Shown: positions 5,767 to 33,805 of the stretch, one piece after another
Numbering within the stretch: the first letter of the stretch is position 1
Layout of the letters: each line of letters begins with the position of its first letter
Virus record (IMG/VR): IMGVR_UViG_3300049482_000051
Coordinates: 1-52,570 of that record
Origin: a virus
Lineage: Duplodnaviria > Caudoviricetes
Length of the DNA: 52,570 nt
Reading direction: 5' to 3' (one strand)
Program-made: the position numbers and the translations under genes
Notes under the pieces: model-generated
Database searches by the model: none
The model's input: only the letters and a program-made list of their open reading frames with translations
Told to the model about the DNA's origin: nothing

Positions 5767-5767
5767 G

Positions 5768-7969: not shown

Positions 7970-7981
7970 TATTCCTCCGTG

Positions 7982-8781: not shown

Positions 8782-8872
8782 GTGGACTCCTGAAATGTTG
8801 TGGGTAGGGCGTTACCGCATAATCCGGGTGGCCGGGAGTTCCTACGACGCGCTGGCGTAGGCCGGGAGAGTC

Positions 8873-9652: not shown

Positions 9653-9687
9653 TAGGTTTACCTTAGTATCCTGGGGTTATGTTACGC

Positions 9688-9714
9688 ACTCTAGTAGTCC
9701 TAGAGCCTCGTCAA
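9688..9714 (-). promoter_or_regulatory. sigma70-like promoter
   Basis: TTGACG-15 nt-TAGAGT, containing a CTCTAG/CTAGAG inverted repeat. Confidence 0.45.
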
Positions 9715-9718
9715 TAGG

Positions 9719-10264: not shown

Positions 10265-10332
10265 CTGGGCGGATCCTTTGCATGAAGTCTGCGGTCATGA
10301 GGATATCGCGGGCCAGGGTCCAGGCGCCGCTG

Positions 10333-11859: not shown

Positions 11860-11860
11860 G

Positions 11861-11947
11861 TTAGAACTGCTTCCTAAAGGGCCAGGTGAGGAACCGGAAA
11901 CACCAGAAGATCGCGTAGAGACAGGCAGTCATAGCGTCTAGGAGCAT
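11861..11947 (-). CDS. small hydrophobic peptide (28 aa, not in the ORF track)
   Basis: MLLDAMTACLYAIFWCFRFLTWPFRKQF; TAATG overlap with the polymerase stop, and fills the gap exactly. Confidence 0.45.
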   Translation of the reverse strand: MLLDAMTACLYAIFWCFRFLTWPFRKQF

Positions 11948-16505: not shown

Positions 16506-16513
16506 AGGTCAAC

Positions 16514-16542
16514 TTTCTAGAGAGCTTACTACAGTAAGTCAA
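16514..16542 (-). promoter_or_regulatory. sigma70-like promoter, probably giving a leaderless or near-leaderless mRNA
   Basis: TTGACT-17 nt-TAGAAA, 8 nt before the ATG at 16505; CTTACT/AGTAAG inverted repeat. Confidence 0.45.
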
Positions 16543-16548
16543 GCGAAT

Positions 16549-16791
16549 TCAGAAGCTAACGGGCGTTCCGAGAGACAAGGACACGGGAACTACTTCCCAT
16601 AAGGGACCTTGTAGCGGAGTAACCCATTGTTTGGTTTCGTAATCGAATCTCCGGACAGGGCGGCTTCGGCGACGGGCGACGGCTTTTGCTCCTCCAAGGG
16701 TGTAAAGTTTCGGAGTTGCGTTCAGTCGCCAGAGACTCAGATAGCCTTGTGGGCTCCGTACGAAGTAGTATTGAACGTCGAGTTGTGGCAT
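16549..16791 (-). CDS. hypothetical protein
   Basis: 80 aa ORF immediately after the GATase stop. Confidence 0.55.
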   Translation of the reverse strand: MPQLDVQYYFVRSPQGYLSLWRLNATPKLYTLGGAKAVARRRSRPVRRFDYETKQWVTPLQGPLWEVVPVSLSLGTPVSF

Positions 16792-16794
16792 GGC

Positions 16795-18327
16795 TTACCC
16801 TTTGGCGCCTACGAGAGTTTGTTCTTCCGGATCCCCGTCAATCGTCACGCTAAGCACTTCGTCGTACTTGGCTTGGATGCTGATACCCAGGTCACTCTTG
16901 ACGGTGAAGGTGTCGCGGTCCATGGCGGTCAAGCGACCGTCGAAGGCATGGGACTTCGCCAGAGTCTCGACGACCACATGGCAGCCGAGGTGATTCTGGA
17001 GGTCCTTCATCCTCGGTAGACTGAGCGTCAGTTGCGACGTGATGTCAGCGATGAAGCCCCAAGAGACTTGGCCAGTCCCGCCGTCATGGCGCTCATAGGA
17101 TAGGCCGATGTCGCTGATGGACGTGCAGACCCCGACGCGCTTCTCGTCGTTATTCAGGACGATCACGACACGCCGACCGATGAAGATACCCGCGTTGTTT
17201 GAGTGCCACACGGGCGTCAGAGTAACCGTGGAGGTCTCTTTGTTGGCCAGGTAGTCATTGATCGCGGCCTCGTCGGCAGCCGTGGCAGCTTCCAGGGCAT
17301 CCGTGTCGTCCTTAGGCTCTGCGAAGGCCAGGAGCGCGTCAGGTACGCCGGCGAGTTCTTTGGCGCTAAGGAGCTTCATGGCCCAGCGAACGGAGGGCTT
17401 GGTGGGCTTGAGGGTTTCGACTTGTTCGAGGACAAAGTCCAGGAAGTCCTCGCCCTCCTCGGGCAACCAGTCGTACCGATCGACTGCGTGCTTCAGGTCT
17501 TTGGCTTCGTCGATAGTCAGGATCTTGCGATGGACCAGAGAGCCGCAGCGCTTACCGAAGTTATCAGTAGCTTTCTTCCGAGCCTCTTTGTATGTCTCCA
17601 TGCGCTTTTTGGCCGCTTCGTGGTCGTACCCTTGGTTAGTCCCAGTATTGCTGCTGCTCCCGGCGTCTGGCTTCGTCGATGGACTGTTGCCAGTTTGCAT
17701 TGCTCGGCCCTGACGAAAATTTCCGGCCTGTGATCCTCCGGCCTGATGTGCTGGTGCCTTGTAAACCTGGTACCCCATGTTCGAGTAGATGAGGCCTGTC
17801 TCCTTGTCCTCGTACCAGCCACTCTTGTTCAGGAGAACCACGCCGCGTGGCTCGATCACGGCTACCTTGTTGCCGCCTCCCATATACTCCTCGACCAGAT
17901 GCTGCCATGGACGCTCCATGTACCAGCCGTCAGGCAGCTTGGTCAAGATGTCCTCAGTGAAGGCCGAGGTATCCGAGCGGCCCTTGCCATACTCCACGAG
18001 CTTCTGGTAGGGCAGGATGCCGTTGTGGGCCATCGCAACCTTGCCGTCCTTGACCCAAAACGGATGAGTATTGGCCTCGTCCTTGGATCCGTGGGTGCCG
18101 ATGCGGAAGTGCAGCATGTAGAAGATGTCTTTGGCTGGCAGGTCCAGCAGAGGCTGCATGGCGGCTCGGAAGTCTGCGAACTTCATGAGGCCCTTGACGA
18201 CGCTGATGCCGCCATTGACATCGGGGTAGGCGATGCCTGCACCGTCTGGATTACGGCTCCACATTTGCTGGAGAACTTCGTCCGTTGGGTGCGAAGCGCC
18301 GGAGACTTTGACTGCGATGATGCACAT
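16795..18327 (-). CDS. class II (Ntn) glutamine amidotransferase with a long C-terminal extension
   Basis: Catalytic Cys2 (MCIIAVK), NPDGAG, HFRIGTHG, NTHPF, AHNGIL, SDT. Confidence 0.9.
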   Translation of the reverse strand: MCIIAVKVSGASHPTDEVLQQMWSRNPDGAGIAYPDVNGGISVVKGLMKFADFRAAMQPLLDLPAKDIFYMLHFRIGTHGSKDEANTHPFWVKDGKVAMAHNGILPYQKLVEYGKGRSDTSAFTEDILTKLPDGWYMERPWQHLVEEYMGGGNKVAVIEPRGVVLLNKSGWYEDKETGLIYSNMGYQVYKAPAHQAGGSQAGNFRQGRAMQTGNSPSTKPDAGSSSNTGTNQGYDHEAAKKRMETYKEARKKATDNFGKRCGSLVHRKILTIDEAKDLKHAVDRYDWLPEEGEDFLDFVLEQVETLKPTKPSVRWAMKLLSAKELAGVPDALLAFAEPKDDTDALEAATAADEAAINDYLANKETSTVTLTPVWHSNNAGIFIGRRVVIVLNNDEKRVGVCTSISDIGLSYERHDGGTGQVSWGFIADITSQLTLSLPRMKDLQNHLGCHVVVETLAKSHAFDGRLTAMDRDTFTVKSDLGISIQAKYDEVLSVTIDGDPEEQTLVGAKG

Positions 18328-18368
18328 GGGTAACGTCCTGTATCTTAGGTTTAGGGTTTTTGGTTGGT

Positions 18369-20873
18369 TTAGAAGTCGTGACCGGCCACAGCGGCCCGTG
18401 CGTTGAAGGAAGCCAGGTGGTCAAGGACTGGTTTGTAGCGCTCTCCTTGTTCCGTGAGGAACTTCTTGTAGGACGCAATGCCGATCGTGCCGTTCTTGGG
18501 CAGGGCCTTGTTGCGACAATACTGGATGACGCTGTCGATGAAGAGCACATTGCGGCGGTACTCTGCATATGACGTGGTGGACTTGAAGATCCGGAACTCC
18601 ACGGTTTTCTCCGTCATGTTGACGGCAGCGTATCGCTGACTCTTCCGGGCGTCCAGGTCCGTGGCCAGATGGACCATTTCGCTGACCGGAGTACCTCGGG
18701 CGCCCCAGTCTAACGAAGCATACGTACTCCGTCGACCAGCAAAGTGAACCGTGAGTTCAGGATTGCCGTAGATGAAGCGCTGGACTCGGAGCAAGCCACG
18801 ACCGATTCGGCGTTCTAGGGTGGACTTTTCTCCTTGGGGTAAGGTGCTGGATAACACCTCGAAACCCGGTTTCGAGGTGTGGATATGAATACCACAGCAG
18901 TCGCGCTCAGCCATCTGGACGCTCAGGTACTGGAACAGCGTCTGGAGGGTGCCCTCGTTCTCGTCCATCCAGGCCAGCGAGAAGGGATGCGACACGAACT
19001 CGATACCATCGCCGATAGAGCCGTCGCGCTTGGCGTAGAAGAGGCCCTTGGACAGTTCAATGGCCCGCTTGGCTGTCGGAGTGCGCTCGTAGGCTCCTCG
19101 GCCACACAGTTCAACCTCAGTACCAAAGTACAGTGGTCCTACGCCGTGAAGACGGGCCTTGGGCTTGTAGCTATAGTCAGCGACGACCTGGAAGTTATTC
19201 TTGCGATAGCAGACAGCACAGACGCCGAAGACGTTTGAGGTGGCCTCGAAGCCCTGGCGACACCCCGGGCATTGGTCGACGTGGGAAGCGCAGGCGCCGC
19301 AGACCATATGGGTTGTCTCGTCGGCCCGGATAACAGTGAAGCCACGTTCGCGGCTATGAGCAGCGCCGCAGCGGGGGCATGTCTGGTTCAGGCGGCGAAG
19401 GACGGCCTGTTTGCCCTTGGCGGTAACGGGGTATTTAACTCCGTCGACCGTGATGCTCTCGGTGGGCTTTCCAAGCTTGGCCTTGCCGAGCGTGCCATTC
19501 TCGTTGTTGACCGTGAGGTACCATTCGCCGGGTGCTGCGAGCATACGGACAACGGTATAGCGTGAAATGTTGCTCTCTTCGGCGAAGCGACTTGGACGTT
19601 CAAGCATGGCCGAATGACCGAAGCTAACAAGGCGTGCAGTTCCCGGAAGGTCTGGAGTGCAGACATCAGATACCACGTCGCCGCCGAACATGAGATACAA
19701 GGCGCCTGGGACACGCGGGCCAGGTAGGTTGAGGGTGCCTTGAACAATGTGGGGTTCGAGGCCGTAGACCTGGTCTCCAGTGATGAGCAGTTGCATGCGA
19801 CGATCGCCGTCGGCCATGACAAAGGCGTCTTCTTCCTCAAAGTTGATGTCGACCTTGGACATGGTCCGGAGCCGCAGGGAACGAATGAGTGAGCCAGTCT
19901 CCAGGCAGGTCACGACGCAGCGACGACCGCTGTAGGTGATAATGGTACCAGGTTCAGGGATGTCAGACTTAGGACGCGGGGCTGCCCAAGTGATACCCTC
20001 GGGCTCTGGAACAGTGACAACAGGAAGGCCGCAGTAGCGCAGGCTTCCCTGGAAGAACTCGGACGACGGAGGAACATTGGAGTTCTCCTGGATGTTCTCC
20101 ATGAGAATGGCGCCGTTGTTGTCGACCCAGGCTACGCTCTTATCTGCGACGGCCAGGATCTTGCCATGTGCCTCGCCGTACTTGATGAACATACCGGGCT
20201 CGAACCGAGTAGTCGGGGCGACCGTAGTAAGCTGAGTGAATGGGCCTTTGAGGTCTCCCTGAGGAACGCGGCCCTCAAAGTCAGCGGGCTCAATGCCGTG
20301 ATCGCGGCGCTTGAAGATGCGCTGACGGCCTTCGTGGACAGCGTGAAACAGAGCGCCTGAGGGAACGTCGGTGACTTTGGTAGTGACACCATGAGTAGTT
20401 ACCGTAGTGCCGCCAGGATTGAACGGGCGGTTAGCGGCGTCGAGGAACTGACCAGTAGGCGAGAGGTGAAGAACCTGAACGCCGCCGTTCTTGCCGTGAA
20501 GGATGTTGGGACCTGCGATCATGAGGCGACCACCGCCTTCAAGCTCGAAGAGGCCTGGTTCTACGGTGAACGGAATGTTCGAGGTGTCAAGTTCATTGGC
20601 CTTGTAGGCCGCAGCGATGGCCGCGATGCCGTAGCCCGTGTAGAACTTGAAGCCGTCGACCGTCGAGGACGCGACGTTCTGAAATTGGTGTGTTGCCAGA
20701 GTTGCGGCAACGTTGATTTCTGGGCATGAACCAATGCGGTTCAGCGGTGACACGAAGAACCGGAGGCATCCGGAGCGATCGGTCACGGGAGGTTCGATGA
20801 CTCGGAAATGCGCGCCAGTCGTGTCGACCAGCACGGAGTCTTTGGTGATATCAGTGAGGGCCGAGATCGTCAT
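18369..20873 (-). CDS. putative amidoligase (COOH-NH2 ligase, Amidoligase_2-like) with zinc ribbons and a long N-terminal extension
   Basis: YFGTEVEL, KRDGSI..GIEFVSHP, CGIHIH, RYAAVN, TVEFRIF; four CxxC pairs immediately upstream; adjacent to the GATase. Confidence 0.85.
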   Translation of the reverse strand: MTISALTDITKDSVLVDTTGAHFRVIEPPVTDRSGCLRFFVSPLNRIGSCPEINVAATLATHQFQNVASSTVDGFKFYTGYGIAAIAAAYKANELDTSNIPFTVEPGLFELEGGGRLMIAGPNILHGKNGGVQVLHLSPTGQFLDAANRPFNPGGTTVTTHGVTTKVTDVPSGALFHAVHEGRQRIFKRRDHGIEPADFEGRVPQGDLKGPFTQLTTVAPTTRFEPGMFIKYGEAHGKILAVADKSVAWVDNNGAILMENIQENSNVPPSSEFFQGSLRYCGLPVVTVPEPEGITWAAPRPKSDIPEPGTIITYSGRRCVVTCLETGSLIRSLRLRTMSKVDINFEEEDAFVMADGDRRMQLLITGDQVYGLEPHIVQGTLNLPGPRVPGALYLMFGGDVVSDVCTPDLPGTARLVSFGHSAMLERPSRFAEESNISRYTVVRMLAAPGEWYLTVNNENGTLGKAKLGKPTESITVDGVKYPVTAKGKQAVLRRLNQTCPRCGAAHSRERGFTVIRADETTHMVCGACASHVDQCPGCRQGFEATSNVFGVCAVCYRKNNFQVVADYSYKPKARLHGVGPLYFGTEVELCGRGAYERTPTAKRAIELSKGLFYAKRDGSIGDGIEFVSHPFSLAWMDENEGTLQTLFQYLSVQMAERDCCGIHIHTSKPGFEVLSSTLPQGEKSTLERRIGRGLLRVQRFIYGNPELTVHFAGRRSTYASLDWGARGTPVSEMVHLATDLDARKSQRYAAVNMTEKTVEFRIFKSTTSYAEYRRNVLFIDSVIQYCRNKALPKNGTIGIASYKKFLTEQGERYKPVLDHLASFNARAAVAGHDF

Positions 20874-20909
20874 GGGGTTTCCTTGAGTTGTAACTTCGTT
20901 ATTTCACAC

Positions 20910-20940
20910 AAAAATACCCAGGGTTTGTAGTCCCCTGGGT
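20910..20940 (-). terminator. intrinsic terminator
   Basis: ACCCAGGG/CCCTGGGT stem followed by ATTTTTG on the minus strand. Confidence 0.65.
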
Positions 20941-20965
20941 CAGAGCCGCTTCTACTTTCGTAGAA

Positions 20966-21172
20966 TTACGGGTTCTTGATTTCCAACTGCACGGTCTTCA
21001 CAAAGCTCAGGCCACGGGCACTGCGGATGTGATTGCGCGCATTGCGCTCAGTGCGGTACGTCTTCGCACCGGGTTCGATGTTGCCCGCAGCGTCCTTGTA
21101 GACGTTGACGAAGAACTTCACGGTTGCCGCAGCGGCAACGGGGGCGACGAGGGTCTGCTGGAAACGGGACAT
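20966..21172 (-). CDS. small basic hypothetical protein
   Basis: 68 aa with a strong AGGAG Shine-Dalgarno; lies between the ribozyme and the terminator. Confidence 0.7.
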   Translation of the reverse strand: MSRFQQTLVAPVAAAATVKFFVNVYKDAAGNIEPGAKTYRTERNARNHIRSARGLSFVKTVQLEIKNP

Positions 21173-21259
21173 GATAACTCCTGCTGCCGGTTAAGGCGTG
21201 CCCATCAGTGTGTCGATGGGGGTTCCCTTGAGCGCAAGGTAGGGCGGTGACACGGACGT

Positions 21260-21348
21260 GTACACTACAGCGCGGGTACCGTAGCTGAGGAGGCTACGGC
21301 TTATTACTCACGCGCTGTTTCGGCCACTCAGGCCATCTTCAGGTGTAC
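21260..21348 (-). ncRNA. type I hammerhead ribozyme
   Basis: Minus strand reads GUACAC-CUGAAGA-U-GGCC(UGAGU)GGCC-GAAA-CAGCGCG...CGCGCUG-UA-GUGUAC: complete core, three paired stems and a GUA cleavage triplet. Confidence 0.9.
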
Positions 21349-21366
21349 TAGCGTAGCTAGACTAAC

Positions 21367-21582
21367 TTAGAACTTCCTAGAGTTCTTAGCGCGCTGATAG
21401 TCAGCCCAGTAGCCGAAGCCACCGGCAATAATGATGACCAGGAGCATGATGAACCAGAAGGTTACAAGGCCAAGCAACGGCGACATCACCCAGAACCAGG
21501 ACCATGCGGCAATGGCTGTGAGTCCTGCGAGTTTGCAGAAGATGAAGGCGGCTTGGAGCATGGCGATGATAGCGGTGAGCAT
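21367..21582 (-). CDS. small membrane protein (KL.G...WSW.WV.SP family common in phages)
   Basis: FCKLAGLTAIAAWSWFWVMSPLL; two hydrophobic helices. Confidence 0.7.
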   Translation of the reverse strand: MLTAIIAMLQAAFIFCKLAGLTAIAAWSWFWVMSPLLGLVTFWFIMLLVIIIAGGFGYWADYQRAKNSRKF

Positions 21583-21615
21583 GTGATTTCCTGTTTTCTG
21601 TGTAGCTTAGCTACA

Positions 21616-21685
21616 ACAAAAAGCCGCCGTGCACGAACCCCCAAGACCCGCAGGTCGCATGGATGGGCTTACTGGCACGGCGGCT
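21616..21685 (-). ncRNA. candidate ~70 nt small RNA or attenuator hairpin
   Basis: An 11 bp stem AGCCGCCGUGC/GCACGGCGGCU closes an inner hairpin and is followed by UUUU; it begins 7 nt after a -10 box. Confidence 0.55.
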
Positions 21686-21692
21686 GAGTGGT

Positions 21693-21719
21693 AACGTAGA
21701 GTTCTTTGAACTATGTCAA
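21693..21719 (-). promoter_or_regulatory. sigma70-like promoter
   Basis: TTGACA-15 nt-TACGTT; AGTTC/GAACT inverted repeat in the spacer. Confidence 0.55.
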
Positions 21720-21722
21720 GAA

Positions 21723-21806
21723 CTATTTTGAGGCCTTGATGAATCGATAGACAGAGTAGATCCAGATGAGCCATAGAATAGCGTAGACGACGAGGAACGT
21801 AGTCAT
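21723..21806 (-). CDS. small single-TM peptide (27 aa, not in the ORF track)
   Basis: MTTFLVVYAILWLIWIYSVYRFIKASK; ATGA overlap with the upstream stop. Confidence 0.5.
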   Translation of the reverse strand: MTTFLVVYAILWLIWIYSVYRFIKASK

Positions 21807-22018
21807 ACAGCCAGGAGGGCTTCGGTATCCAAGCCGTACTCAAGGCCAATGTCACGGGCTTCTTCATGCCACTTAGTTCGGTGGAACTGTGACATGGTTG
21901 TGCGAAAGTCATTGAGCATGTCGCGCTCATTGACGCCTCTCGCCTGGGGGAACGGCTTCCCTGAGAACATGGCTACGACGCAGGAGTTGTAGAAGCCCTG
22001 AAGCTTCGTGAGGGTCAT
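21803..22018 (-). CDS. hypothetical protein
   Basis: 71 aa; ATGA-coupled at both ends. Confidence 0.65.
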   Translation of the reverse strand: MTLTKLQGFYNSCVVAMFSGKPFPQARGVNERDMLNDFRTTMSQFHRTKWHEEARDIGLEYGLDTEALLAV

Positions 22019-22317
22019 GACTGGCTTTCTTGGGCGATAGGACGGCGGGGAGAGCCTGAGGCGTCTTGAAGCGCAAAGGCGAGGTTGTTGAGGCGAGTGT
22101 TCATCATTTCTTGGAGCTCTGGGCCACGAGAGAGGATCTCAACGCCTGGGTGCTCAGAGCCACTGGCCTGGGCTAGGAACACAAGGAGTTCGTCGCCTGC
22201 GCTGGCGGCTTTGTGGAGCGCAAGGCCGAGGGCTCGGAGTTTTGAGATAACTAGGTACTGGAAGCAAATGATGAACAGGGCAATAGCGAGGGCTATTGAG
22301 AGGATGAGGGTGGTCAT
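22015..22317 (-). CDS. membrane-anchored hypothetical protein
   Basis: N-terminal TM helix; ATGA coupling. Confidence 0.65.
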   Translation of the reverse strand: MTTLILSIALAIALFIICFQYLVISKLRALGLALHKAASAGDELLVFLAQASGSEHPGVEILSRGPELQEMMNTRLNNLAFALQDASGSPRRPIAQESQS

Positions 22318-22577
22318 GGTTCTTTCCAGACTAGTTTAACGCGGACTACGAGGCACGTGGGGCCTGCGCGTCGATTGGCTCCTAGGCCAGGCACTGGGGC
22401 CGTAGCGTGCTCGAAGTGGGTGCGGTACTCTACGCAGTCGTGGTACGGCAGTGCCCTGGTGTTCGAGGTCTTAACGTAGGTGTAGGTATCAAAGTCAGCT
22501 GGGCATCCAAAGACTTCGCCGATGGCCAGGTCTTTGAATTCCAGGGTGTTTCCGGTGGCTAGGGCTTTCCAGGGCAT
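22314..22577 (-). CDS. MPW-array paralog 8
   Basis: MPWKAL...FKDLAIGEVF...YVK...VKLVWKE. Confidence 0.75.
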   Translation of the reverse strand: MPWKALATGNTLEFKDLAIGEVFGCPADFDTYTYVKTSNTRALPYHDCVEYRTHFEHATAPVPGLGANRRAGPTCLVVRVKLVWKEP

Positions 22578-22579
22578 GT

Positions 22580-22831
22580 CTAGTTACTCCAGCGGAACTT
22601 CAAGGTGTTGAATATAGGGCCATCGCTGGCGCTTGCATGACGCGCAATGGCCGGGGAGCGCGGAGGAATCACAGGCTGTTCGCCGGGGGTGAAGTAATCC
22701 CAGTGGTTTTGGAGAGGCCCTGTCTTTAGCCAGAACTTGGTGGCGGCCATGTGGGCTCGGGAGAACACAGTGCCAACTTCCATAGACTCAAAGGTTACGT
22801 CGCGCTTTACTACTGAGAATGTCCAGGGCAT
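22580..22831 (-). CDS. MPW-array paralog 7
   Basis: MPWTFS...FESMEVGTVF...WLK...LKFRWSN. Confidence 0.75.
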   Translation of the reverse strand: MPWTFSVVKRDVTFESMEVGTVFSRAHMAATKFWLKTGPLQNHWDYFTPGEQPVIPPRSPAIARHASASDGPIFNTLKFRWSN

Positions 22832-22832
22832 T

Positions 22833-23093
22833 TTAGTCCTTCCATTCTAGGCGGTACATGAACACCTTTGCGTTGTCACGGAAGGGTGAGTGTATTCTGG
22901 CAACTGGAGAAGCCTTGGGTACGGGGCCTTCGTTGGAGTCGGAGGTGTTTATGGAGAAGCACTCGGTTTCGGTGTGCTTGACGCGGCCTGGATAGCGATA
23001 GCCGGGGGAATAGGTATGTAGGGATACGCCTAGGCCTATTGGTACATTGCGGAATGTGCTTAGGCCAAGGCAGGATTTGATGACCCAGGGCAT
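22833..23093 (-). CDS. MPW-array paralog 6
   Basis: MPWVIKS...FRNVPIG...RVK...YRLEWKD. Confidence 0.75.
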   Translation of the reverse strand: MPWVIKSCLGLSTFRNVPIGLGVSLHTYSPGYRYPGRVKHTETECFSINTSDSNEGPVPKASPVARIHSPFRDNAKVFMYRLEWKD

Positions 23094-23094
23094 T

Positions 23095-23346
23095 TTAATC
23101 TCTCCATTCTAGCTTTATTTGGTGCCAGGATTGTTCTGGGCTATGCGAGCCTCGGCTACTGTCGAGGGGTCGTGGTATGGGAATATATCCGCGATCTAGC
23201 CTTTGGAGCCTGCCCTCGTGGTTGAGAATCAACACGGACCCAACCTCTTCGCCTACTGTGTTCTCCATGCACTGAATCGTTGAGCCTGGAGGCAGGTGCT
23301 TCATGAGGCTAGGATGATCTGCTATCCAGGTGACAATCCATGGCAT
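23095..23346 (-). CDS. MPW-array paralog 5
   Basis: Start at MPWIVTW (23346); MKHLPPG...IKLEWRD. Confidence 0.7.
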   Translation of the reverse strand: MPWIVTWIADHPSLMKHLPPGSTIQCMENTVGEEVGSVLILNHEGRLQRLDRGYIPIPRPLDSSRGSHSPEQSWHQIKLEWRD

Positions 23347-23348
23347 GA

Positions 23349-23585
23349 CTAAACATCCTTGGTGGTGAGGGTGCCCTCCAGTTCGATAACTTCGTATCCT
23401 ACGCACCAGACGTGCTCTTTGCCAGACTCGGTGCCAGTAAGGGTCATGGAGCCATTGGTGCTATGTTTCAGCTTCATGAACACAACGCCGGGGAACTTCT
23501 CGTCCCGGAATAGGTCTCCGCCTTCCAGGTGGTCGATGACAACTTTGCGGCCCCGGACTTCGCGGTTCAAGGTAATGCGTGGCAT
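23349..23585 (-). CDS. MPW-array paralog 4 (most divergent termini)
   Basis: MPRITL...IDHLEGGDLF...VFMK...VIELEGTL shares the core pattern. Confidence 0.7.
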   Translation of the reverse strand: MPRITLNREVRGRKVVIDHLEGGDLFRDEKFPGVVFMKLKHSTNGSMTLTGTESGKEHVWCVGYEVIELEGTLTTKDV

Positions 23586-23586
23586 G

Positions 23587-23859
23587 TTATATTTCCTTGT
23601 ATTCTACGTTTACGAGTTGGCACTTATAGTCTGGACGCAGGAACACATTCTCGGCCACGGGGCTCTGGATTGAAGGCGTGGGACTTAGGGTCAACGGGGA
23701 GTAGCTATGCGCGTCGCGCTTGATGAGGGGAGTCCAGGCGGTGTCGCCTATGTGAAGGTCTGCGTGGCCTATGATAGACCAAGTTTGCCCTACGGCCATG
23801 TCGCCGAAGCGAATGTGAGGGCCTACGCTTTTTATTACCCAGGTCATAAGGATCCTCAT
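23587..23859 (-). CDS. MPW-array paralog 3
   Basis: (MRIL)MTWVIKS...FGDMAVGQTW...LIK...VNVEYKE. Confidence 0.7.
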   Translation of the reverse strand: MRILMTWVIKSVGPHIRFGDMAVGQTWSIIGHADLHIGDTAWTPLIKRDAHSYSPLTLSPTPSIQSPVAENVFLRPDYKCQLVNVEYKEI

Positions 23860-24122
23860 TCAATCCAGGCTAGGGTGGCGCGGTAGACCAGGTGTTCATC
23901 ACTGTAGTATTCGTGGTATCCGTTGAGTGAGGGAACGGGAGTAGCGCCATGGTGCCTAGGGTGGTTTGCGTCAACATACTGTTCGGGGCCGACCTTGATG
24001 AGGGTGTAGAGGTGTCTGGTCATGAGCAACTCGGGATCGCACGCTGTGGCCCAGGCTTCTCCGACTCCGATTTCAGAGAACGGAACGCGGGTATTAGATA
24101 TGCTTCGCATTACCCAGGGCAT
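23856..24122 (-). CDS. MPW-array paralog 2
   Basis: MPWVMRSI...FSEIGVGEAWA...LIK...VYRATLAWIE. Confidence 0.75.
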   Translation of the reverse strand: MPWVMRSISNTRVPFSEIGVGEAWATACDPELLMTRHLYTLIKVGPEQYVDANHPRHHGATPVPSLNGYHEYYSDEHLVYRATLAWIE

Positions 24123-24125
24123 AGG

Positions 24126-24404
24126 CTACTCCACATAGGTAAGGATGGCTTTGTAGACAGTGCGGGATGGGGAGAAGTCATGACGGGTCCAGGTGCTTGA
24201 TACCCGCAATGAGGACAGATCAGGAACGGGTAATAGGGCTAGCGTTACATCAAGGTACAGGTGGTCATCGAACTTTATGAGGGACCTGACTCCTGGATTC
24301 ATGATGTAGTAGGGCACTTCGTAGCTTGATGCCCAGGCTTCTCCGGGGAGTAGGGTGCCATAAAGCACGGGCTCGGGGTTTATGGATTTCATTAGCCAGG
24401 GCAT
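24126..24404 (-). CDS. MPW-array paralog 1
   Basis: MPWLMKSI...YGTLLPGEAWA...LIK...VYKAILTYVE. Confidence 0.75.
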   Translation of the reverse strand: MPWLMKSINPEPVLYGTLLPGEAWASSYEVPYYIMNPGVRSLIKFDDHLYLDVTLALLPVPDLSSLRVSSTWTRHDFSPSRTVYKAILTYVE

Positions 24405-24411
24405 AGGACAC

Positions 24412-24840
24412 CTATTCCTCTAGGAGGATACCGCACGGCGTTTCTGAGCCGTCTTCGTGGACGTGGACGAACATAGCCAGGAGGCTTTCAGGCATGCACA
24501 GCTTCTCAGACTGGTCAAGGCCTTCGTAGCTTACTAAGCTGGCGTAGGTGTTGGGGGTTCTTTGGGCGGCAAAGATGTGCTGGGTGTGGCTATGTAGGCA
24601 GCGAATCATGAGAATCTTGGGTACTTCGTCCTTGGTCCAAGGGCGCCACTTAGGTTTGGGCTTGACGCGGAACTCAAAGTTGCCGTTGAGCATCTTGTGC
24701 CAGGAGTCGAAGTCACGGGAGTTCATGTCCTGCCAGCGAGGCGGGGTTTGGTCATCGACAAGGAAGGAGTACTGAATTGCCTTGCCACCGACGAAGGCCT
24801 GGAGGATTGGGATGAGGAACGAGGCTTCGTTGACGTTCAT
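24412..24840 (-). CDS. conserved phage hypothetical protein
   Basis: ILQAFVGGKAIQ...W.D...FRVKPKPKWRPW is a pattern I recognise from phage early proteins of unknown function. Confidence 0.65.
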   Translation of the reverse strand: MNVNEASFLIPILQAFVGGKAIQYSFLVDDQTPPRWQDMNSRDFDSWHKMLNGNFEFRVKPKPKWRPWTKDEVPKILMIRCLHSHTQHIFAAQRTPNTYASLVSYEGLDQSEKLCMPESLLAMFVHVHEDGSETPCGILLEE

Positions 24841-24870
24841 GGTTCATACCTTTCAGGTAATGCCCGTACA

Positions 24871-24945
24871 AAGCCTAGGTGATGACGAGGTTATATAGAG
24901 TGAATATAAAGCGTGTACACTCTACGGCATTCATCGCCTAGGCTT
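24871..24945. repeat. 15 bp inverted repeat enclosing a second 7 bp stem
   Basis: AAGCCTAGGTGATGA (24871-85) pairs with TCATCGCCTAGGCTT (24931-45); inner TAGAGTG/CACTCTA. Confidence 0.75.
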
Positions 24946-24972
24946 AATGTTTCATAGCGTTTCAGCTAATCG

Positions 24973-25323
24973 TCAGCGGGCTTTGAGGTTGCGGAGCAAT
25001 TTATGGGCCGCGATATGCTTGAAGGTAGCCTTGCCCAAGTCGTTGAGCTCGGCCAAGTCGTTCATTGTGTTACGGCTTAGCCCGAGGAGCTTGGCATTCG
25101 CTATGTCCAGGAGCCCTGAAGCGCACTGAGGAAGGCGGCACACGAGGGCGGCTACACCGAGGCAGCAGAACGACTTGCCCGCCCTTGGAGAGCATTCGCT
25201 GCTGCTCGCGTCGATGCCCTGGCGAGCCAGGGCGCCAGTGGTCTGCTTGTAGCGTCCGGAGCGCAGGGCCTTACGCCACTTAGAGCGCAGGGCATTGATT
25301 TCTTTGCGTTTTTTGGCTTTCAT
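24973..25323 (-). CDS. conserved phage hypothetical protein
   Basis: W.KALRSGRYKQ..G.L...FCCLGV...LAELND.G..TF..IA pattern; start placed at MKAKKRK. Confidence 0.7.
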   Translation of the reverse strand: MKAKKRKEINALRSKWRKALRSGRYKQTTGALARQGIDASSSECSPRAGKSFCCLGVAALVCRLPQCASGLLDIANAKLLGLSRNTMNDLAELNDLGKATFKHIAAHKLLRNLKAR

Positions 25324-25324
25324 G

Positions 25325-25486
25325 TCAGTCTTCGCTTTCATAGTGGGCAATGAGCACAGCGCGCTCAACGAGGGCTGTGACTCGATTGTGGATGAGGGCA
25401 GACACGGCAGCCTTGGTGGCTTGGTCGCCGTTGTAGCCAGCTAGGAACAAGGACTCTAGGAGTTCTTGGATGGTTGGGTCTGGCAT
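25325..25486 (-). CDS. small hypothetical protein (53 aa, not in the ORF track)
   Basis: MPDPTIQELLESLFLAGYNGDQATKAAVSALIHNRV...; fits the gap exactly. Confidence 0.55.
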   Translation of the reverse strand: MPDPTIQELLESLFLAGYNGDQATKAAVSALIHNRVTALVERAVLIAHYESED

Positions 25487-25489
25487 GGC

Positions 25490-25639
25490 CTAGTCCTTGG
25501 ACGCTTTGTGGAAGCACCAGAGGAAGACCACGAAGTTCACTACGGACAGGGTGGCGCTCAGGTGGCTTCCAGTGGCTTGGAAGTCAAAGGCCAGGTAGAC
25601 GCCGCAGATGAGGTTGAGGAGGGCGAGGGGGAGGTTCAT
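25490..25639 (-). CDS. small two-TM membrane protein (49 aa, not in the ORF track)
   Basis: MNLPLALLNLICGVYLAFDFQATGSHLSATLSVVNFVVFLWCFHKASKD. Confidence 0.55.
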   Translation of the reverse strand: MNLPLALLNLICGVYLAFDFQATGSHLSATLSVVNFVVFLWCFHKASKD

Positions 25640-25646
25640 GGGAGTC

Positions 25647-26345
25647 CTAGGTTAGAAGGGTATTGCTCAGCATGTACTGAACGATGTGGCAGTTAGGGCC
25701 AACCATGAACAGGTACGGGTAGTCCTGGCTGGCGTGTCGCATGATGTGGTAAAGGCGCCCGGCGTTGCGGTCTGAGGCGAACAGAACCTTAGAGCGCGAA
25801 CCGGTCGAGGAGTCAAGGACTAGGAAGTACAAGTGGACCAAGCCCTTAGCCCTTGGATACCGGGTATCGAATGACAGGGCGTGTTCAAGTAGCCAAGGTT
25901 GTGGGTTGGTGAAGCGCTTCAGGCGGTCCAGGACTTCTTGGGGGAGTGGGGGATTCGCAGCTTGGCCGTGTTCGTCAAGTAGCTGGTCGGACCGGATGGT
26001 GCCGACGGGTGTCAGGTATTCGACAGGGCTATGGCGGTAGGGCAGTTTGTAGTGGCGGAGAAGCTCTTGGCCCACGGCTTGGTTGAAGAGGGTTTGAGCA
26101 CGCGGGGCTAAGCGGGGGAGCGCAGAATGCTTGGAGTTGAGGTTCTGGCAGGACGTGAATTGATCCACGACCATCTGGACTTTCCAGCGGTCCCGAGCGA
26201 GTTGGATGGGCTCTAGGGCTAGTGGATTGAAGTGTCCGGGGGTCACGCGAGTGTGCGGAGAACGTATCCCTAAAAGTTTGTCTTTTTCGAGCAAACGTAA
26301 GTCCAGTGTTTTGGGGTCCGCTGGCGGCAGGGGGAAGAGGGGCAT
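25647..26345 (-). CDS. hypothetical protein
   Basis: Start placed at MPLFPLP (26345), just outside the long inverted repeat; no motif recognised. Confidence 0.6.
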   Translation of the reverse strand: MPLFPLPPADPKTLDLRLLEKDKLLGIRSPHTRVTPGHFNPLALEPIQLARDRWKVQMVVDQFTSCQNLNSKHSALPRLAPRAQTLFNQAVGQELLRHYKLPYRHSPVEYLTPVGTIRSDQLLDEHGQAANPPLPQEVLDRLKRFTNPQPWLLEHALSFDTRYPRAKGLVHLYFLVLDSSTGSRSKVLFASDRNAGRLYHIMRHASQDYPYLFMVGPNCHIVQYMLSNTLLT

Positions 26346-26356
26346 AAAAGAGCGTC

Positions 26357-26535
26357 CTTGTAAGTGCTTGGTAATCAATATCGGCAACCGTTCAAAGTGG
26401 ACCTGGAACATCTAAGAGGGCTTATAGGCTATTTATCCCTAAAGGCCATTAGTGATATTTTGTAGTATTTTGCCTTTGACTGTTGCTAGGTCCACTATGA
26501 ACGGTTAGCGATATTGAAAACAAAGGACTTACAAG
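26357..26535. repeat. ~54 bp imperfect inverted repeat around an AT-rich spacer
   Basis: 26357-26410 CTTGTAAGTGCTTGGTAATCAATATCGGCAACCGTTCAAAGTGGACCTGGAACA versus the reverse complement of 26481-26535 CTTGTAAGTCCTTTGTTTTCAATATCGCTAACCGTTCATAGTGGACCTAGCAACA. Confidence 0.85.
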
Positions 26536-26605
26536 CCTACTGTTCAAGTGTTGCAGGGGTCTTGGGCACCCCTGGACACTCTAGCTCTAGTGAGGCTTTG
26601 AAGCC

Positions 26606-27223
26606 TCAAGCCTGGAGCGTTTGGGCCGCTTCAGCGCTCAAGATTTCAGGCTCCTGGGCCGGAGCAATCCCGGTCACTTCAGCGATGAGCGCGGCTTTCT
26701 CGGATTCGCTGAGGCGAGCAAAGGCGGCCTTAGCTTTTTCGGCCTTCGTGCGTTCCAAGACTTTCGCGCCGCCATCGAGTTTCACCGTGCGTTCCGCATT
26801 CAAGCGGTCGCCGTACTTGGCTTTCAGTTGGATGAAGATGCCACGGGCAAACATGAGCAGACCATGATCCTTGACCAACGCGGCTTTGCCCAATGTCACC
26901 TTGTCGAACGCGGTGGCTTCAAGGCATGCGTCCACCGGGTTCGTAGCATCATGGATTCGATACGCCGTGGGAACAAGGATGTCGTCGACATCCGCGGCTT
27001 TCAGGAGGCCTGCGAAGCGATCGAGGGTGCTCTGGTAAGCCAAGACACCACGGACTTCGGCGGGCAAGTGCTTGGTCTTTCCGGGCTTTGCCATGGCAGC
27101 CATGGCGTTCAACTCTGCGAGGCACGCGGTGCCACGGAGCAAGGCAACGCCCACGATGGTCAGGCGATTCAAGTCGCCCCGAGTCGTGGACATGATGGTT
27201 TTTTGGGTTTCAGTAAGGCTCAT
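26606..27223 (-). CDS. hypothetical early protein
   Basis: 205 aa, Ala/Lys-rich; first long ORF of the minus arm. Confidence 0.7.
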   Translation of the reverse strand: MSLTETQKTIMSTTRGDLNRLTIVGVALLRGTACLAELNAMAAMAKPGKTKHLPAEVRGVLAYQSTLDRFAGLLKAADVDDILVPTAYRIHDATNPVDACLEATAFDKVTLGKAALVKDHGLLMFARGIFIQLKAKYGDRLNAERTVKLDGGAKVLERTKAEKAKAAFARLSESEKAALIAEVTGIAPAQEPEILSAEAAQTLQA

Positions 27224-27245: not shown

Positions 27246-27446
27246 TTAGGTGTCTAGGACACTCCAGATGCTTGGAACACCCAAGCCCTGGGAGCCTAGT
27301 ACGGGAAGGCTAAGCCACTCTGTGGCCCATGGTTCTGAGAAGCTAAGAGCATCGCGCCAGGAGGCTTTGCGCGCTGTGCGGGTCACAGTGACCCGTGAGC
27401 ATGGAATCATGGCCCACATACGCGCTGCGAGTGCTTGGATTGTCAT
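27246..27446 (-). CDS. possible small hypothetical protein
   Basis: 66 aa ORF with the same TAGGACTCCCATG start context as the gene at 25639. Confidence 0.35.
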   Translation of the reverse strand: MTIQALAARMWAMIPCSRVTVTRTARKASWRDALSFSEPWATEWLSLPVLGSQGLGVPSIWSVLDT

Positions 27447-28180
27447 GGGAGTCCTAGACGACTAGGGTTTTCAAACGTCATTGTGCCACCCTGTTACCAG
27501 GATGGACACAGAACGCTTGGAAGCGTCTTGGAGTGTTATTTTGAGGTTGCACTGCCATTAGGATGCTAACGGGTCGCCCCTGACAACTATGTTGCCGCAT
27601 CATCACCTAACACGCCAAACTAGGTCAAGCTAGTCCGGTCACATGGTCTTGTCAGAACCAAGAGGGCAAGAGCGTGCTTGATCCGAGGTGCGCCGCACTA
27701 GGCGGGTCTGGTATCTGTGGTCATAATGCCGGCCAAGATGTCTTGGCTGCTACCACGCTCACATGGTCGCTGCATCACCTGATGCATTGTGTCCCTGTGT
27801 TTACCGGATCGCTCAGATTCTGGGAGCTTCGCCGGATGCTTGGACACCTGGGACGCTAGGTCAGAACCCTAGACGGCGCAGGCGCTTGGATGTCAAAGTC
27901 CTTGTGACCCTAGGCGGGCCAAGACCCCGAAGGTCCTGGTATTTTGATCCTCCCGGTCGCTTGGTGGTCTCTGCCACCTAGGTCTAACCGGATCTCACAT
28001 AGTCTTAGAGGGCTTGGAAACTAGGATGACTGGGTCGCGTGGACAACTGAGACACCAAGACAACCTAATTATTCCGTTTTGAAACCGACTGTGAGAATAA
28101 GGGTCCCTACCCCCCAGCCGCGCAAACAACCGGGATATAAGGTAACACTTGAACACATAGCTAACCGAGGCTACTAGGAC

Positions 28181-28208
28181 TTGACATGGGCCTCCTGGCC
28201 TCTAGGGT
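28181..28208 (+). promoter_or_regulatory. sigma70-like promoter for the terminase genes (leaderless)
   Basis: TTGACA-16 nt-TAGGGT, then 6 nt to the ATG at 28215; no Shine-Dalgarno. Confidence 0.55.
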
Positions 28209-28214
28209 ATCGCC

Positions 28215-28709
28215 ATGCCCAAACTTCCAGCCCCGAAGACCACGGCCTACGTGGTAGAGCTAGAGCGTCTGCGAAGAGCTCTGCCACTTCGTGCTCTTCT
28301 CCAGCTAATGACCCAGTCCGCCCTAACCGGCCAAATCCCCATCCTAGACCTGTACGGTAAGCCCACAGGTCAGTTCAAGCCCTTGCGCCCGGACAAGCAG
28401 ATCGACCTGGCCATGTCCTTGATAAACAAGGCGCTCCCCGACCGTCCAGAGCAGCCAGTGCTCCCAGAAGACGCTTCACAAGGTAAAACCATAGATGTCC
28501 GAAATCTTAGCGACGAAGAACTCGAAGCCCTCGCAGTCCACGGCGACACCAAAGACGCCTGTCTTCTCGGACCGAGGGGAGGTCTTGGTACCCCTGGGTC
28601 CATCCAGGACCCAGGGGTTAGCGATACCCAGTCCAGTGCTGAGCCTAGAAGCCCAAGCGAGCCTGGAACTGACCCGGCGAGCCGCGACGACGGAGCTTCA
28701 GCGACGTAA
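28215..28709 (+). CDS. probable terminase small subunit
   Basis: Sits before terL; LINKALPD and IDVRNLSDEELEALA motifs are typical of TerS C-termini. Confidence 0.6.
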   Translation: MPKLPAPKTTAYVVELERLRRALPLRALLQLMTQSALTGQIPILDLYGKPTGQFKPLRPDKQIDLAMSLINKALPDRPEQPVLPEDASQGKTIDVRNLSDEELEALAVHGDTKDACLLGPRGGLGTPGSIQDPGVSDTQSSAEPRSPSEPGTDPASRDDGASAT

Positions 28710-30228
28710 GCTGATCCACCTAACGTCCGCGTTCACCAACGACTACATGCCCGGCTGGGTGCACAAGGAAGTCGCCGAGCACTTGGAAGCCTTCATGGAG
28801 GCCGTGGAGCGCAAGCAGTCTCCGCGCCTCATGATCTTCTTGCCTCCACGGACCGGGAAGACCCAGCTAGTATCCCGGTGCTTCCCGGCCTACGTCATGG
28901 GCCACCACCCAGAATGGGAAGTCATCGCCGCCACGTTCGGCCAAGACCTCGCCGACGACATCGGGCGCTACGTACGGAGCATCGTCAATGACCCCCAGTA
29001 CCACAAGCTATTCCCCGACACTAAGCTCCAAACTGGCTCTAATGCCGCCGACCGACTTGATACCACGTCTCGCGGTGGCTACCGGGCGGTGGGACGCGGA
29101 GGCGCTCTCACGGGTCGAGGAGCCCATGTACTTATACTTGATGACCCGCTCAAAGACGACTCAGAAGCTGATAGCGCCACCGTCCAAGAAGGACTCCGGT
29201 CCTGGTACATCACGAGCGCCCGAAGCCGTCTAGCGCCCGGGGGCGGCATCATCATTGTCCAGACTCTCTGGAGTCTCAACGATCTCCCCTTGTTCCTCCT
29301 GGAGTGTCAAGATAAGGACGAACTCGCCGACAAATGGAAGGTCTACAAGTACCCGGCTATCGCAACCCAGGACGAACCTAACCGCAAGAAGGGCGAGGCG
29401 CTACACCCTGACCGCTTCGGCGTCAAGGATCTAGAGCGCACCCGGGCGTCCTATTACGCTACGGGCATGAGCCGCTGGTGGAACTCCCTGTACCAGCAGA
29501 ACCCAGTCGACGAAGAAGGCAATTTCTTTAAAAGAGAATGGATCGACTATTACGACAAGCTCCCAGAGGACCTGAACTGGTACATGGGCGTCGACTACGC
29601 CGTGTCCGTCAAGTCGCATAACGATCCTACAGCGATCGTAAGATTCGGAGTCTCTCCTAGCGGAGACATCTACATAGACCCCGAAATCTTCTGCGACCGC
29701 GTGTCATCCCTAGACGCCATCAACACCGTGCTCCGCATGGCCAAGGCCAAGAAGGTCTGGCAGATCGGGTCTGAAAAGGGCGTCATTGAGAACGCCATTG
29801 GGCCACTGTTTGAGCAGCGCTGCCGGGAGATGAAGTACTACCCGTTCGTCCACAAGCTAGCCCGTAGTCAGTCTAAGCACGTCTACGCCGCCGTGTTGCA
29901 AGGCCGTATGCAGCAGCACAAGATCAAGTTTCCTAGAACTAAGTTTGTCGAAGAAGTCCTGGTCCCTGAGCTTATGGCCTTCCGCGCCGACGCAGACAAT
30001 AAGAGCGACAACCTCGTAGACGCCCTAACCAACGGGTTGCTCATGGTCAACACCCTAATCCCAGCGAAGGAGTCGAAGCCCGAGCCCGTAGACTCAGATA
30101 TAGTCCCCGGGTCCATGGAAGACCTCATGAGCCGGAAGCACCATAACATCTTCGAGCTAGACCAAGAGGACCGCAGTTCCATCTTCGCTTGGCGCAAGAA
30201 GGACAAAAAGAAGCCTAGGTTCTGGTAA
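28495..30228 (+). CDS. terL: terminase large subunit
   Basis: LPPRTGKT (Walker A), LTGRGAHVLILDDP (Walker B), GVDYA..DPTA and DNLVDA nuclease motifs; true start uncertain. Confidence 0.95.
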   Translation: MSEILATKNSKPSQSTATPKTPVFSDRGEVLVPLGPSRTQGLAIPSPVLSLEAQASLELTRRAATTELQRRKLIHLTSAFTNDYMPGWVHKEVAEHLEAFMEAVERKQSPRLMIFLPPRTGKTQLVSRCFPAYVMGHHPEWEVIAATFGQDLADDIGRYVRSIVNDPQYHKLFPDTKLQTGSNAADRLDTTSRGGYRAVGRGGALTGRGAHVLILDDPLKDDSEADSATVQEGLRSWYITSARSRLAPGGGIIIVQTLWSLNDLPLFLLECQDKDELADKWKVYKYPAIATQDEPNRKKGEALHPDRFGVKDLERTRASYYATGMSRWWNSLYQQNPVDEEGNFFKREWIDYYDKLPEDLNWYMGVDYAVSVKSHNDPTAIVRFGVSPSGDIYIDPEIFCDRVSSLDAINTVLRMAKAKKVWQIGSEKGVIENAIGPLFEQRCREMKYYPFVHKLARSQSKHVYAAVLQGRMQQHKIKFPRTKFVEEVLVPELMAFRADADNKSDNLVDALTNGLLMVNTLIPAKESKPEPVDSDIVPGSMEDLMSRKHHNIFELDQEDRSSIFAWRKKDKKKPRFW

Positions 30229-32950: not shown

Positions 32951-33805
32951 GTGGTGGGGTTCCCGAACGTTAAAGCGGTTGTAGATGCCGAGACGCAGGG
33001 GCGTGTTCGGCGCTACTCGTTTCGTAAGACTCCAGCCGTGACGACGGTCGCCGGAATCTGGTGCGACCTGAGTATGTCGCCTGGAAACCCGGTACCAAAC
33101 TACTACGCAAACACGCCGCTGGTTGCTGCGGTTCTGGAAGGCAACGAAGGCCTGTTCCACGGAAGCGATGTAGCACCTGCGACCAAGCACCTGCGCGAAA
33201 CTCTGATTCTTTCGTCTAGCGCAACGGGGCTGCCGCTGGTTCTTCTGCTTTGCGACTACCTGCTGTACTACCCCTTCATCGACCAGGGCGACACTGATCC
33301 GCAGGTCATGGACAACACGGTCACGCTGCCACGATACAGTGACGGCGCGGGCGTCCAGATCATGCCAATCCTCGTGGGCGCGCAGACGGGTGACCAGTCC
33401 TTCACCGTCAGCTACACCAACCAAGACGGCGTGGCAGGCCGCACGACTCCAGTCTGCATCTGCAATACCGCGACGTTCAACGGTGCCATCGTCAGTTCTC
33501 AAACGGCAAACGCCTTGGCTCGCGGCCCGTTCCTCGCGCTCCAAGGTACCGACACCGGCGTCCGGTCCATCGAGTCCGTGACCATGCTCGGCGCCGACGT
33601 GGGTCTCATGACCTTCGTTCTCATCAAGCCCCTCACCACCTTCATCCTCCGCGAACAGACCGCGCCAGTCGAAGTCAATTACGTTACCGATCGCCCGGGT
33701 ATCCCCGAGTTCAAAGACGGCGCGTACCTGAATCTTCTCTGCTGCCCCCAGGGCTCGCTCTCTGGCGTCTCGCTTCACGGCATCCTTACTACGACTTGGA
33801 ACTAA
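32951..33805 (+). CDS. virion structural protein (paralog of the next gene)
   Basis: LPRYSDGAGVQ, YTNQDG and GTDTGVRS are shared with 33809-34960. Confidence 0.6.
   Translation: MVGFPNVKAVVDAETQGRVRRYSFRKTPAVTTVAGIWCDLSMSPGNPVPNYYANTPLVAAVLEGNEGLFHGSDVAPATKHLRETLILSSSATGLPLVLLLCDYLLYYPFIDQGDTDPQVMDNTVTLPRYSDGAGVQIMPILVGAQTGDQSFTVSYTNQDGVAGRTTPVCICNTATFNGAIVSSQTANALARGPFLALQGTDTGVRSIESVTMLGADVGLMTFVLIKPLTTFILREQTAPVEVNYVTDRPGIPEFKDGAYLNLLCCPQGSLSGVSLHGILTTTWN

Follow-up and report, generated by a model that had tools for sequence, protein, structure and literature searches.

Organisation of the MPW array

The 52,570-base pair (bp) virus record IMGVR_UViG_3300049482_000051 of IMG/VR, which is the window analysed here at its full length, carries at positions 22314-24404 of its minus strand eight adjacent open reading frames (ORFs) coding products of 78-92 amino acids (aa). 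They are named M1 to M8 in their order of reading and, together, the MPW array, after the Met-Pro-Trp with which most of the proteins begin. An earlier note, made from the nucleotide sequence, had presented them as eight paralogues with conserved ends and hypervariable middles, a diversified library of one small beta-barrel scaffold. The ORF listing agrees with its account of eight minus-strand ORFs at this place and the start residues are as claimed, namely MPW in six proteins, MTW in M3 and MPR in M4.

M1 (24126-24404) and M2 (23856-24122) code MPW proteins of 92 and 88 aa, respectively. M3 (23587-23847, 86 aa) is counted from its MTW ATG, which has GAGGA 5 nucleotides (nt) ahead of it; an alternative upstream ATG at 23859 would extend the gene to 23587-23859 (90 aa) and create a 4-nt overlap with the M2 stop. 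The MPR gene M4 (23349-23585, 78 aa) lacks the PVP motif and the terminal W. M5 (23095-23346) yields 83 aa from its MPW ATG, the listed ORF that begins at a GTG being longer. The MPW genes M6 (22833-23093, 86 aa), M7 (22580-22831, 83 aa) and M8 (22314-22577, 87 aa) complete the row. From M1 to M8 the genes are separated, in order, by 3, 8 (or the 4-nt overlap if the long M3 start is used), 1, 2, 1, 1 and 2 nt. The sequence ATGCCCTGG is found seven times in the window against 0.52 expected, a count that none of 100 shuffles reaches, and five of its seven occurrences are MPW gene starts.

Public gene calls place the starts of M1 and M2 at the Met of codon 5, giving proteins of 88 aa (P0008) and 84 aa (P0001). 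We favour the upstream MPW starts because of the family alignment and the position of the ribosome-binding motif; P0011, a foreign relative of M2 (see below), lacks a Met at position 5. The array protein sequences show no hydrophobic segments. Their isoelectric points (pI) range from 5.5 to 9.8: M6 (9.3) and M7 (9.8) are basic, and five of the seven members of the family defined below are acidic or near neutral. Such a spread would be compatible with different partners and proves nothing.

Relationship between the array proteins

Paralogy was assessed by a leave-one-out test in which a hidden Markov model built from seven of the proteins scored the eighth together with 1000 shuffles of that eighth. 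M2 (33.1 bits), M8 (20.2 bits), M1 (18.8 bits), M3 (18.6 bits), M5 (16.0 bits), M7 (14.1 bits) and M6 (13.2 bits, with the best shuffle at 9.5) attain scores that none of their 1000 shuffles reaches. Pairwise BLASTP gives 42.7 bits for M1 and M2, 39.3 for M1 and M3, and 30.0 for M2 and M8. Judged by sequence, seven of the eight genes are one family. The claim of eight paralogues stands for these seven but not for M4, which scores -1.6 bits, as much being reached by 823 of its 1000 shuffles, and which hhalign aligns to the ten-row family alignment over 8 columns with an expectation value (E) of 0.74.

In a word-index protein search M4 retrieves only itself, and BLASTP of M4 against N4 gp21 gives nothing. 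Its single-sequence AlphaFold2 model is unusable (predicted local distance difference test, pLDDT, 41.5). The ESM Atlas own model of M4 has a predicted template modelling score (pTM) of 0.61, and its ESM Atlas neighbours are viral hypothetical proteins of 65-80 aa (feature score 0.91-0.92, template modelling (TM) score 0.63-0.68), the same general kind as the neighbours of M2. M4 also sits within the array with the junction layout of the other genes. It is either an unrelated small phage gene or a copy that diverged past recognition.

Aligned identity among the seven family members is 14-35% and the family tree could not be resolved, its end branches being 4-6 changes per site long; the low identity and the long branches indicate that the duplications are old. 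The motifs attributed to the proteins are visible in the alignments: F/Y-x-x-h-x-x-G-x-x-F/W (h standing for a hydrophobic residue), h-K, PVP or PIP, and a terminal strand followed by W/Y-x-D/E. Column entropy is 1.36 bits over residues 1-8, 0.76 over the PVP block and 1.96 over residues 81-88, against 2.3-2.6 bits in the middle, in keeping with the description of conserved ends and nearly unalignable middles.

Predicted fold

The AlphaFold2 model of M2, computed from a seven-row alignment, has a pLDDT of 81.8 and a pTM of 0.75. It features strands at residues 3-14, 23-25, 41-43, 48-51 and 78-86, with lower confidence at 31-40 and 51-70, and has no N-terminal helix; the pLDDT of residues 1-20 is 85-95. 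The fold predicted for each copy is a small SH3-like barrel of five strands. The 50 structural matches listed for the model are nearly all SH3-like barrels, among them uL2, EF-P, eIF5A, the KOW domain of Spt5, CarD, the C-terminal Tudor domain of UvrD/PcrA, FeoA and the SH3 domains of IdeR/Mn-repressor. No Sm, LSm or Hfq chain is found among these 50 matches listed, which does not exclude Sm, LSm or Hfq. Foldseek with the M2 model against the PDB gives nothing significant, the top row being FeoA (E 0.55). The BFVD neighbours are uncharacterised phage proteins of 55-95 aa, many of them from N4-like phages; the best has an E of 5.8e-3 and a TM score of 0.60, and another has TM scores of 0.64/0.71.

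When conservation is mapped onto the model, the columns W3, F15, L18, G21, W24, h-K at 42-43, Y49-x-D51 and those of the last strand are located in predicted strands. Two long loops, at approximately 25-40 and 52-77, take up the stretches that defy alignment; the second loop holds the P-V-P turn. Two ideas of the earlier note find support here: the small beta-barrel scaffold, in the prediction for M2 and its SH3-like neighbours, and the confinement of divergence to loops and of conservation to strands, in the model taken together with the alignment.

Gene junctions and expression layout

A GGAG, AAGGA or GAGGA motif is present upstream of all eight starts, within the last codons of the preceding gene. 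The codons of the terminal W-x-D/E (TGG-AGA-GAT, TGG-AAG-GAC, TGG-AGT-AAC, GTG-GAG) supply this ribosome-binding motif. The packing of the genes at 1-8 nt and the Shine-Dalgarno-like motif inside the preceding gene argue for co-translation from one transcript. Translational coupling most likely extends over a single unit that comprises the gene upstream of the array, the array itself and two downstream genes. The upstream gene (24412-24840, minus strand, 142 aa) lies 7 nt ahead of M1 and is without a family match. The next gene of the operon (22015-22317, minus strand, 100 aa), whose start is overlapped over 4 nt by the M8 stop, codes a protein with a hydrophobic and probably membrane-spanning N-terminus. 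Neither gene belongs to the MPW family.

No promoter-like site is found within the array. On the opposite (plus) strand there is a weak terminator-like hairpin of 5 bp at 22686-22701. A match to the Rfam manganese riboswitch at 23684-23854, also on the opposite strand, was taken as chance (16.4 bits versus a gathering score of 45, E 0.29).

Repeated DNA junctions had been reported between the genes, and a role in recombination was proposed for them. The M6/M7 junction (22823-22850, minus strand), which contains GGAAGGA and serves as the reference copy of a 28-nt repeat, and the M5/M6 junction (23085-23112, minus strand), which contains GGAGAG, are identical at 25 of 28 nt, but only these two are alike; a third copy at 24396-24423 shows 64% likeness. 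In the repeat, the conserved last strand contributes five codons, which TAA, one base and ATG-CCC-TGG follow; at M5/M6 these are the five last codons of M5, its stop, one spacer base and the three first codons of M6. Since protein conservation and the ribosome-binding site explain this similarity, and since only two junctions are alike, their proposed use as recombination sites is not upheld. An exact 15-mer common to M1 and M2 stands at 24049-24063 and 24331-24345.

Relatives and rarity of the family

A profile search of 1.84 billion representatives of approximately 15 billion proteins (E <= 0.001) yields 16 matches, which are the seven own proteins of the phage, three genuine foreign small proteins and six long repeat proteins. 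The repeat proteins (651-1351 aa) were dropped as spurious sums: single repeats score at most 14.1 bits, with independent E of at least 6e3, and the alignments cross repeat boundaries. The genuine relatives are P0011 (86 aa, 45% identical to M2), P0012 (89 aa, 46% identical to M1) and P0015 (91 aa). P0011 and P0012 are each found on one 2535-bp contig, very probably the same contig, and P0015 on one 1613-bp contig. Because P0012 pairs with M1 and P0011 with M2, the M1/M2 split is older than the separation from a related phage; both copies are kept there, which weighs against a fast turnover of redundant cassettes.

The MPW family is nearly private to this phage lineage. Among viral contigs P0011 has no match and P0012 matches four loci, over its residues 47-74 only; at these four loci and in positions 1-16000 of N4 the family profile finds nothing above 6.7 bits. 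In the word-index protein search M2 retrieves only itself, and the family alignment retrieves five own proteins of the phage and P0015. This alignment is too diverged for pattern scans. None of the eight array proteins reaches a gathering cut-off in Pfam-A, the best case being YceI for M4 (14.3 bits versus a cut-off of 23.7). Seven PHROG families are touched by the ten family members, each by one member only, with a best E of 0.039, and the family profile reaches a best E of 0.84 against PDB sequences. The absence of Pfam, PHROG and PDB-sequence matches agrees with the remark that no described family is recognised. A full-text literature search with generic terms, searching by sequence not being possible, found no description of such an array.

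Genome context

The record is a whole virus with a CheckV completeness of 100, in which IMG/VR found no end repeats. The genome is laid out in two divergent arms. The minus-strand arm, which extends from approximately 27.2 kilobases (kb) down to 3.5 kb, codes a family A DNA polymerase (11947-14079) and an SNF2-type helicase (10333-11859), as well as a PD-(D/E)XK nuclease, an HD phosphohydrolase and a metallophosphatase. The plus-strand arm, from 28.2 kb, codes the large terminase (28495-30228), a portal-like protein and a tail-collar protein. No tRNA genes are found in the 52.6-kb record. The MPW array lies 3-5 kb into the minus-strand arm, ahead of the replication genes. Its products had been suggested to be adaptors for a neighbouring ligase, but searches of Pfam, PHROGs, NCBIfam and PDB sequences reveal no ligase domain in the tested ORFs of this early and replication arm (4046-10264, 10333-20873, 21803-22317 and 24412-27223).

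No cultured phage is closely related to this novel 52.6-kb tailed phage. The closest match of its large terminase is Aeromonas phage phiA008 (38.5% identity), in whose genome no MPW-family member is found. A blastn search of 20000-27000 at the 'distant' setting against phage records gives zero matches, as do the DNA polymerase against viral contigs and the 834-aa protein of the replication arm against metagenome contigs. The large terminase matches one locus each in metagenome and viral contigs, at 24% identity.

The only DNA run with the array region, a metagenome of freshwater sediment, is probably where the record comes from. Contigs from the RNA library of a second study, a metatranscriptome, are 99-100% identical to parts of the minus-strand arm and leave most of the array uncovered, which has no bearing on its expression; they show that the phage is present in another sample and are not evidence of transcription. 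One of them matches 23324-23590, which covers M4, with 1 difference in 267 nt. This difference, at 23378, is C>A on the plus strand; it would turn M4 codon 70 from GAG into TAG and trim the last 9 residues of the protein. It is seen in a single contig of depth 3 and may be an error.

Other parts of the genome deserve mention. The segment of approximately 1 kb between the divergent arms (27250-28215) has no convincing ORF and no Rfam match. It folds slightly better than shuffles (z -2.35 for the minus strand and -1.56 for the plus strand), and a second-study RNA-library contig covering 27650-27983 has a word depth of 64, the highest of all matching pieces. Candidates for its nature are a leader, a small RNA and an origin or promoter region. 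The record ends cut two very large plus-strand ORFs, 50110-52569 (820 aa, 3'-open) and 1-3555 (1184 aa, 5'-open), which have no Pfam or PHROG match. A simple circular join would not bring them into one frame, and no repeat of 20-200 nt is common to both ends; these ORFs could be two separate genes or a single giant one that spans an imperfect end.

In the structural arm the adjacent genes 32951-33805 and 33809-34960 are paralogous (33% identity over 162 aa, E 1e-12) and are the only paralogue pair in the phage besides the MPW array; 33809-34960 has weak PHROG matches, one of them to a baseplate wedge family. Neither the product of 18369-20873 (834 aa) nor that of 14079-16505 (808 aa), both in the replication arm, is matched in Pfam, NCBIfam or PDB sequences; the former matches only PHROGs of unknown function. 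The N-terminal 110 residues of the 16795-18327 product (510 aa) are weakly similar to class-II glutamine amidotransferases of the GlmS/PurF type, below all curated cut-offs, and the remainder of this protein has no assignment.

Proposed role and alternative explanations

A series of old tandem duplications would have led to seven copies of a lineage-specific small soluble protein of 83-92 aa, which would be made from one transcript by coupled translation. The strands of each copy would be built by the conserved residues, that is W3, the V-x-F-x-x-L-x-x-G-x-x-W hairpin, h-K, Y-x-D and the last strand ending in W-x-D/E, while its two diverged loops might bind a different partner in the infected cell. 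The array would then be a set of host-takeover or counter-defence factors on one scaffold. We hold with moderate confidence that it is an ancient, co-translated and early-expressed set of diversified small barrel binders for host takeover or counter-defence; any specific role within this statement is held with less confidence than the whole.

Several points weigh against this interpretation. The early timing is deduced solely from the position of the array, the RNA-library contigs showing neither strand nor transcription, and the role in host takeover or counter-defence is putative. Loop divergence could come from relaxed constraint instead of diversified binding. The ESM Atlas own model of M2 is poor (pTM 0.46, pLDDT 0.54), and the alignment behind the AlphaFold2 model has 7 rows only.

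The MPW proteins might instead be RNA- or DNA-directed modulators like GoF of phage T4, which we consider unlikely. FeoA and the IdeR/Mn-repressor SH3 domains, neighbours of the M2 model, are those reported for the T4 family (PMC12152347). Many of the other neighbours listed are RNA-associated or RNA polymerase-associated barrels (uL2, EF-P, eIF5A, Spt5 KOW, CarD and the UvrD/PcrA Tudor domain), and the basic pI of M6 and M7 would suit nucleic acid-directed proteins. The acidic or near-neutral character of five of the seven members, however, does not fit, and hhalign detects no sequence relationship to GoF (E 0.35) or MotB.1 (E 0.097), the two T4 proteins compared, each at a probability below 1%. 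Furthermore, wild-type GoF itself has no established function.

Quite unlikely is the proposal that all eight genes are one cassette library whose junctions promote frequent duplication, loss and exchange of cassettes through recombination. The 25 of 28 nt shared by two junctions, the exact 15-mer of M1 and M2, and the MP start, size class and junction layout that M4 has in common with the other genes would agree with it. The remaining junctions are nevertheless unlike, even the third copy reaching only 64%, and coding together with the ribosome-binding motif accounts for the 28 nt in common. With identities of 14-35% and saturated branches, recent exchange is not in evidence; M1-like and M2-like genes have stayed separate lineages in another contig, and M4 fails both sequence tests.

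The Sm fold, which combines an N-terminal helix with five strands and in Sm, LSm and Hfq proteins assembles into hexameric or heptameric rings, has an SH3-like topology, and eukaryotic Sm rings are made of seven paralogues. We regard it as very unlikely that the seven MPW paralogues, produced in equal amounts via coupled translation, join in one hetero-oligomer such as an SH3/Sm-like ring linked through edge strands. The same small chance is given to a ring or stack of seven that acts on host or phage RNA or DNA in the course of takeover, with the first and last strands as inter-subunit edges and the loops individualising positions. The member count is indeed seven, the 1-8 nt coupling suits stoichiometric synthesis and the copies are old and individually retained; a ring of this kind, if true, would parallel the seven-paralogue Sm rings of eukaryotes. 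Yet the row is interrupted by M4, which is not shown to be related, and the foreign contigs are too short to reveal whether the seven stay together.

The internal-protein loci of T4-type phages are polymorphic series of small genes with a common N-terminal targeting peptide; this capsid-targeting peptide is removed by the prohead protease and the proteins are present in virions. By analogy, the MPW proteins could be packaged in the capsid and injected with the DNA, the MPW-h-h-K-S N-terminus acting as a packaging or processing signal and the rest as variable payload. A conserved N-terminus followed by a variable remainder would fit this, but the explanation is likewise very unlikely: the N-terminal segment is predicted as a core barrel strand (residues 1-20, pLDDT 85-95), the C-terminus is conserved too, and the array belongs to the non-structural arm, coded on the other strand from the head and tail genes.

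Finally, that the ORFs are chance open frames is scarcely credible, for although opposite-strand overlapping ORFs exist in this DNA rich in guanine and cytosine, the protein-level paralogy, the foreign homologues with 45-46% identity, the confident fold prediction and the regular ribosome-binding motifs and spacing are those of genes.

Uncharacterised host-takeover and counter-defence functions of phages have their main reservoir in small early genes, which are usually singletons and hence hard to analyse. The seven MPW copies take up approximately 4% of the genome, each kept while the loops diverged completely, and they make it possible to follow, in a natural series, the re-targeting of a minimal barrel. 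If they bind different host proteins, the array would be a compact case of a phage repertoire built by duplication and not by gene capture. With three relatives as its only other occurrences among the 1.84 billion representatives, the family also provides a marker for a phage lineage that has no cultured relative.

Comparison with known systems

The LSm-like family of T4 that comprises GoF and MotB.1 as well as Frd.2 is the closest described kind. The homology of its N-terminal barrels was found by PSI-BLAST and its structural neighbours include FeoA and the IdeR/Mn-repressor SH3 domains, as for the M2 model (PMC12152347). The T4 proteins have a barrel N-domain, a linker and a C-terminal domain, whereas the MPW proteins are single-domain polypeptides of 83-92 aa. 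The T4 family has three dispersed copies, in contrast to the seven tandem MPW copies, each with a long P-V-P loop ahead of its last strand. Cellular SH3-like small barrels (the uL2 C-terminal domain, domain I of EF-P/eIF5A, FeoA and the Tudor, KOW and CarD domains) would share topology and size with the predicted MPW barrel.

The gp21-like proteins of Schitoviridae such as N4 are uncharacterised, have 55-90 aa and come from non-structural regions, as the MPW genes do. Among the BFVD neighbours of the M2 model they are the main group, including K4F7Y3 of GAP52 (E 0.011, TM scores 0.54/0.60) and N4 Gp21 (E 0.21). In hhalign of the family against gp21 the V-P-F-x-x-I-x-x-G-x-x-F segment is in register, but the E of 0.087 over 21 columns is not significant. 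N4 gp21 belongs to phrog_7431, phrog_7832, phrog_8365 and phrog_6570, annotated as of unknown function; none of the four models matches the window at E <= 10. One of the ten family members touches phrog_6570, at E 0.2, and none touches the other three. A tblastn search with N4 gp21 gives only 16 near-identical N4-type records, which are too uniform for a diverse gp21 alignment.

The host-takeover genes of phage SPO1 are not known to be paralogues of one another, unlike the MPW array, which repeats one scaffold. The SPO1 module is a 26-gene cluster and, like the MPW array, a block of many small early phage genes, which in SPO1 are thought to shut down different host processes (PMC6873191). The MPW proteins would belong to a known kind, the small barrel proteins of phage early regions, as a new family that has expanded in tandem.

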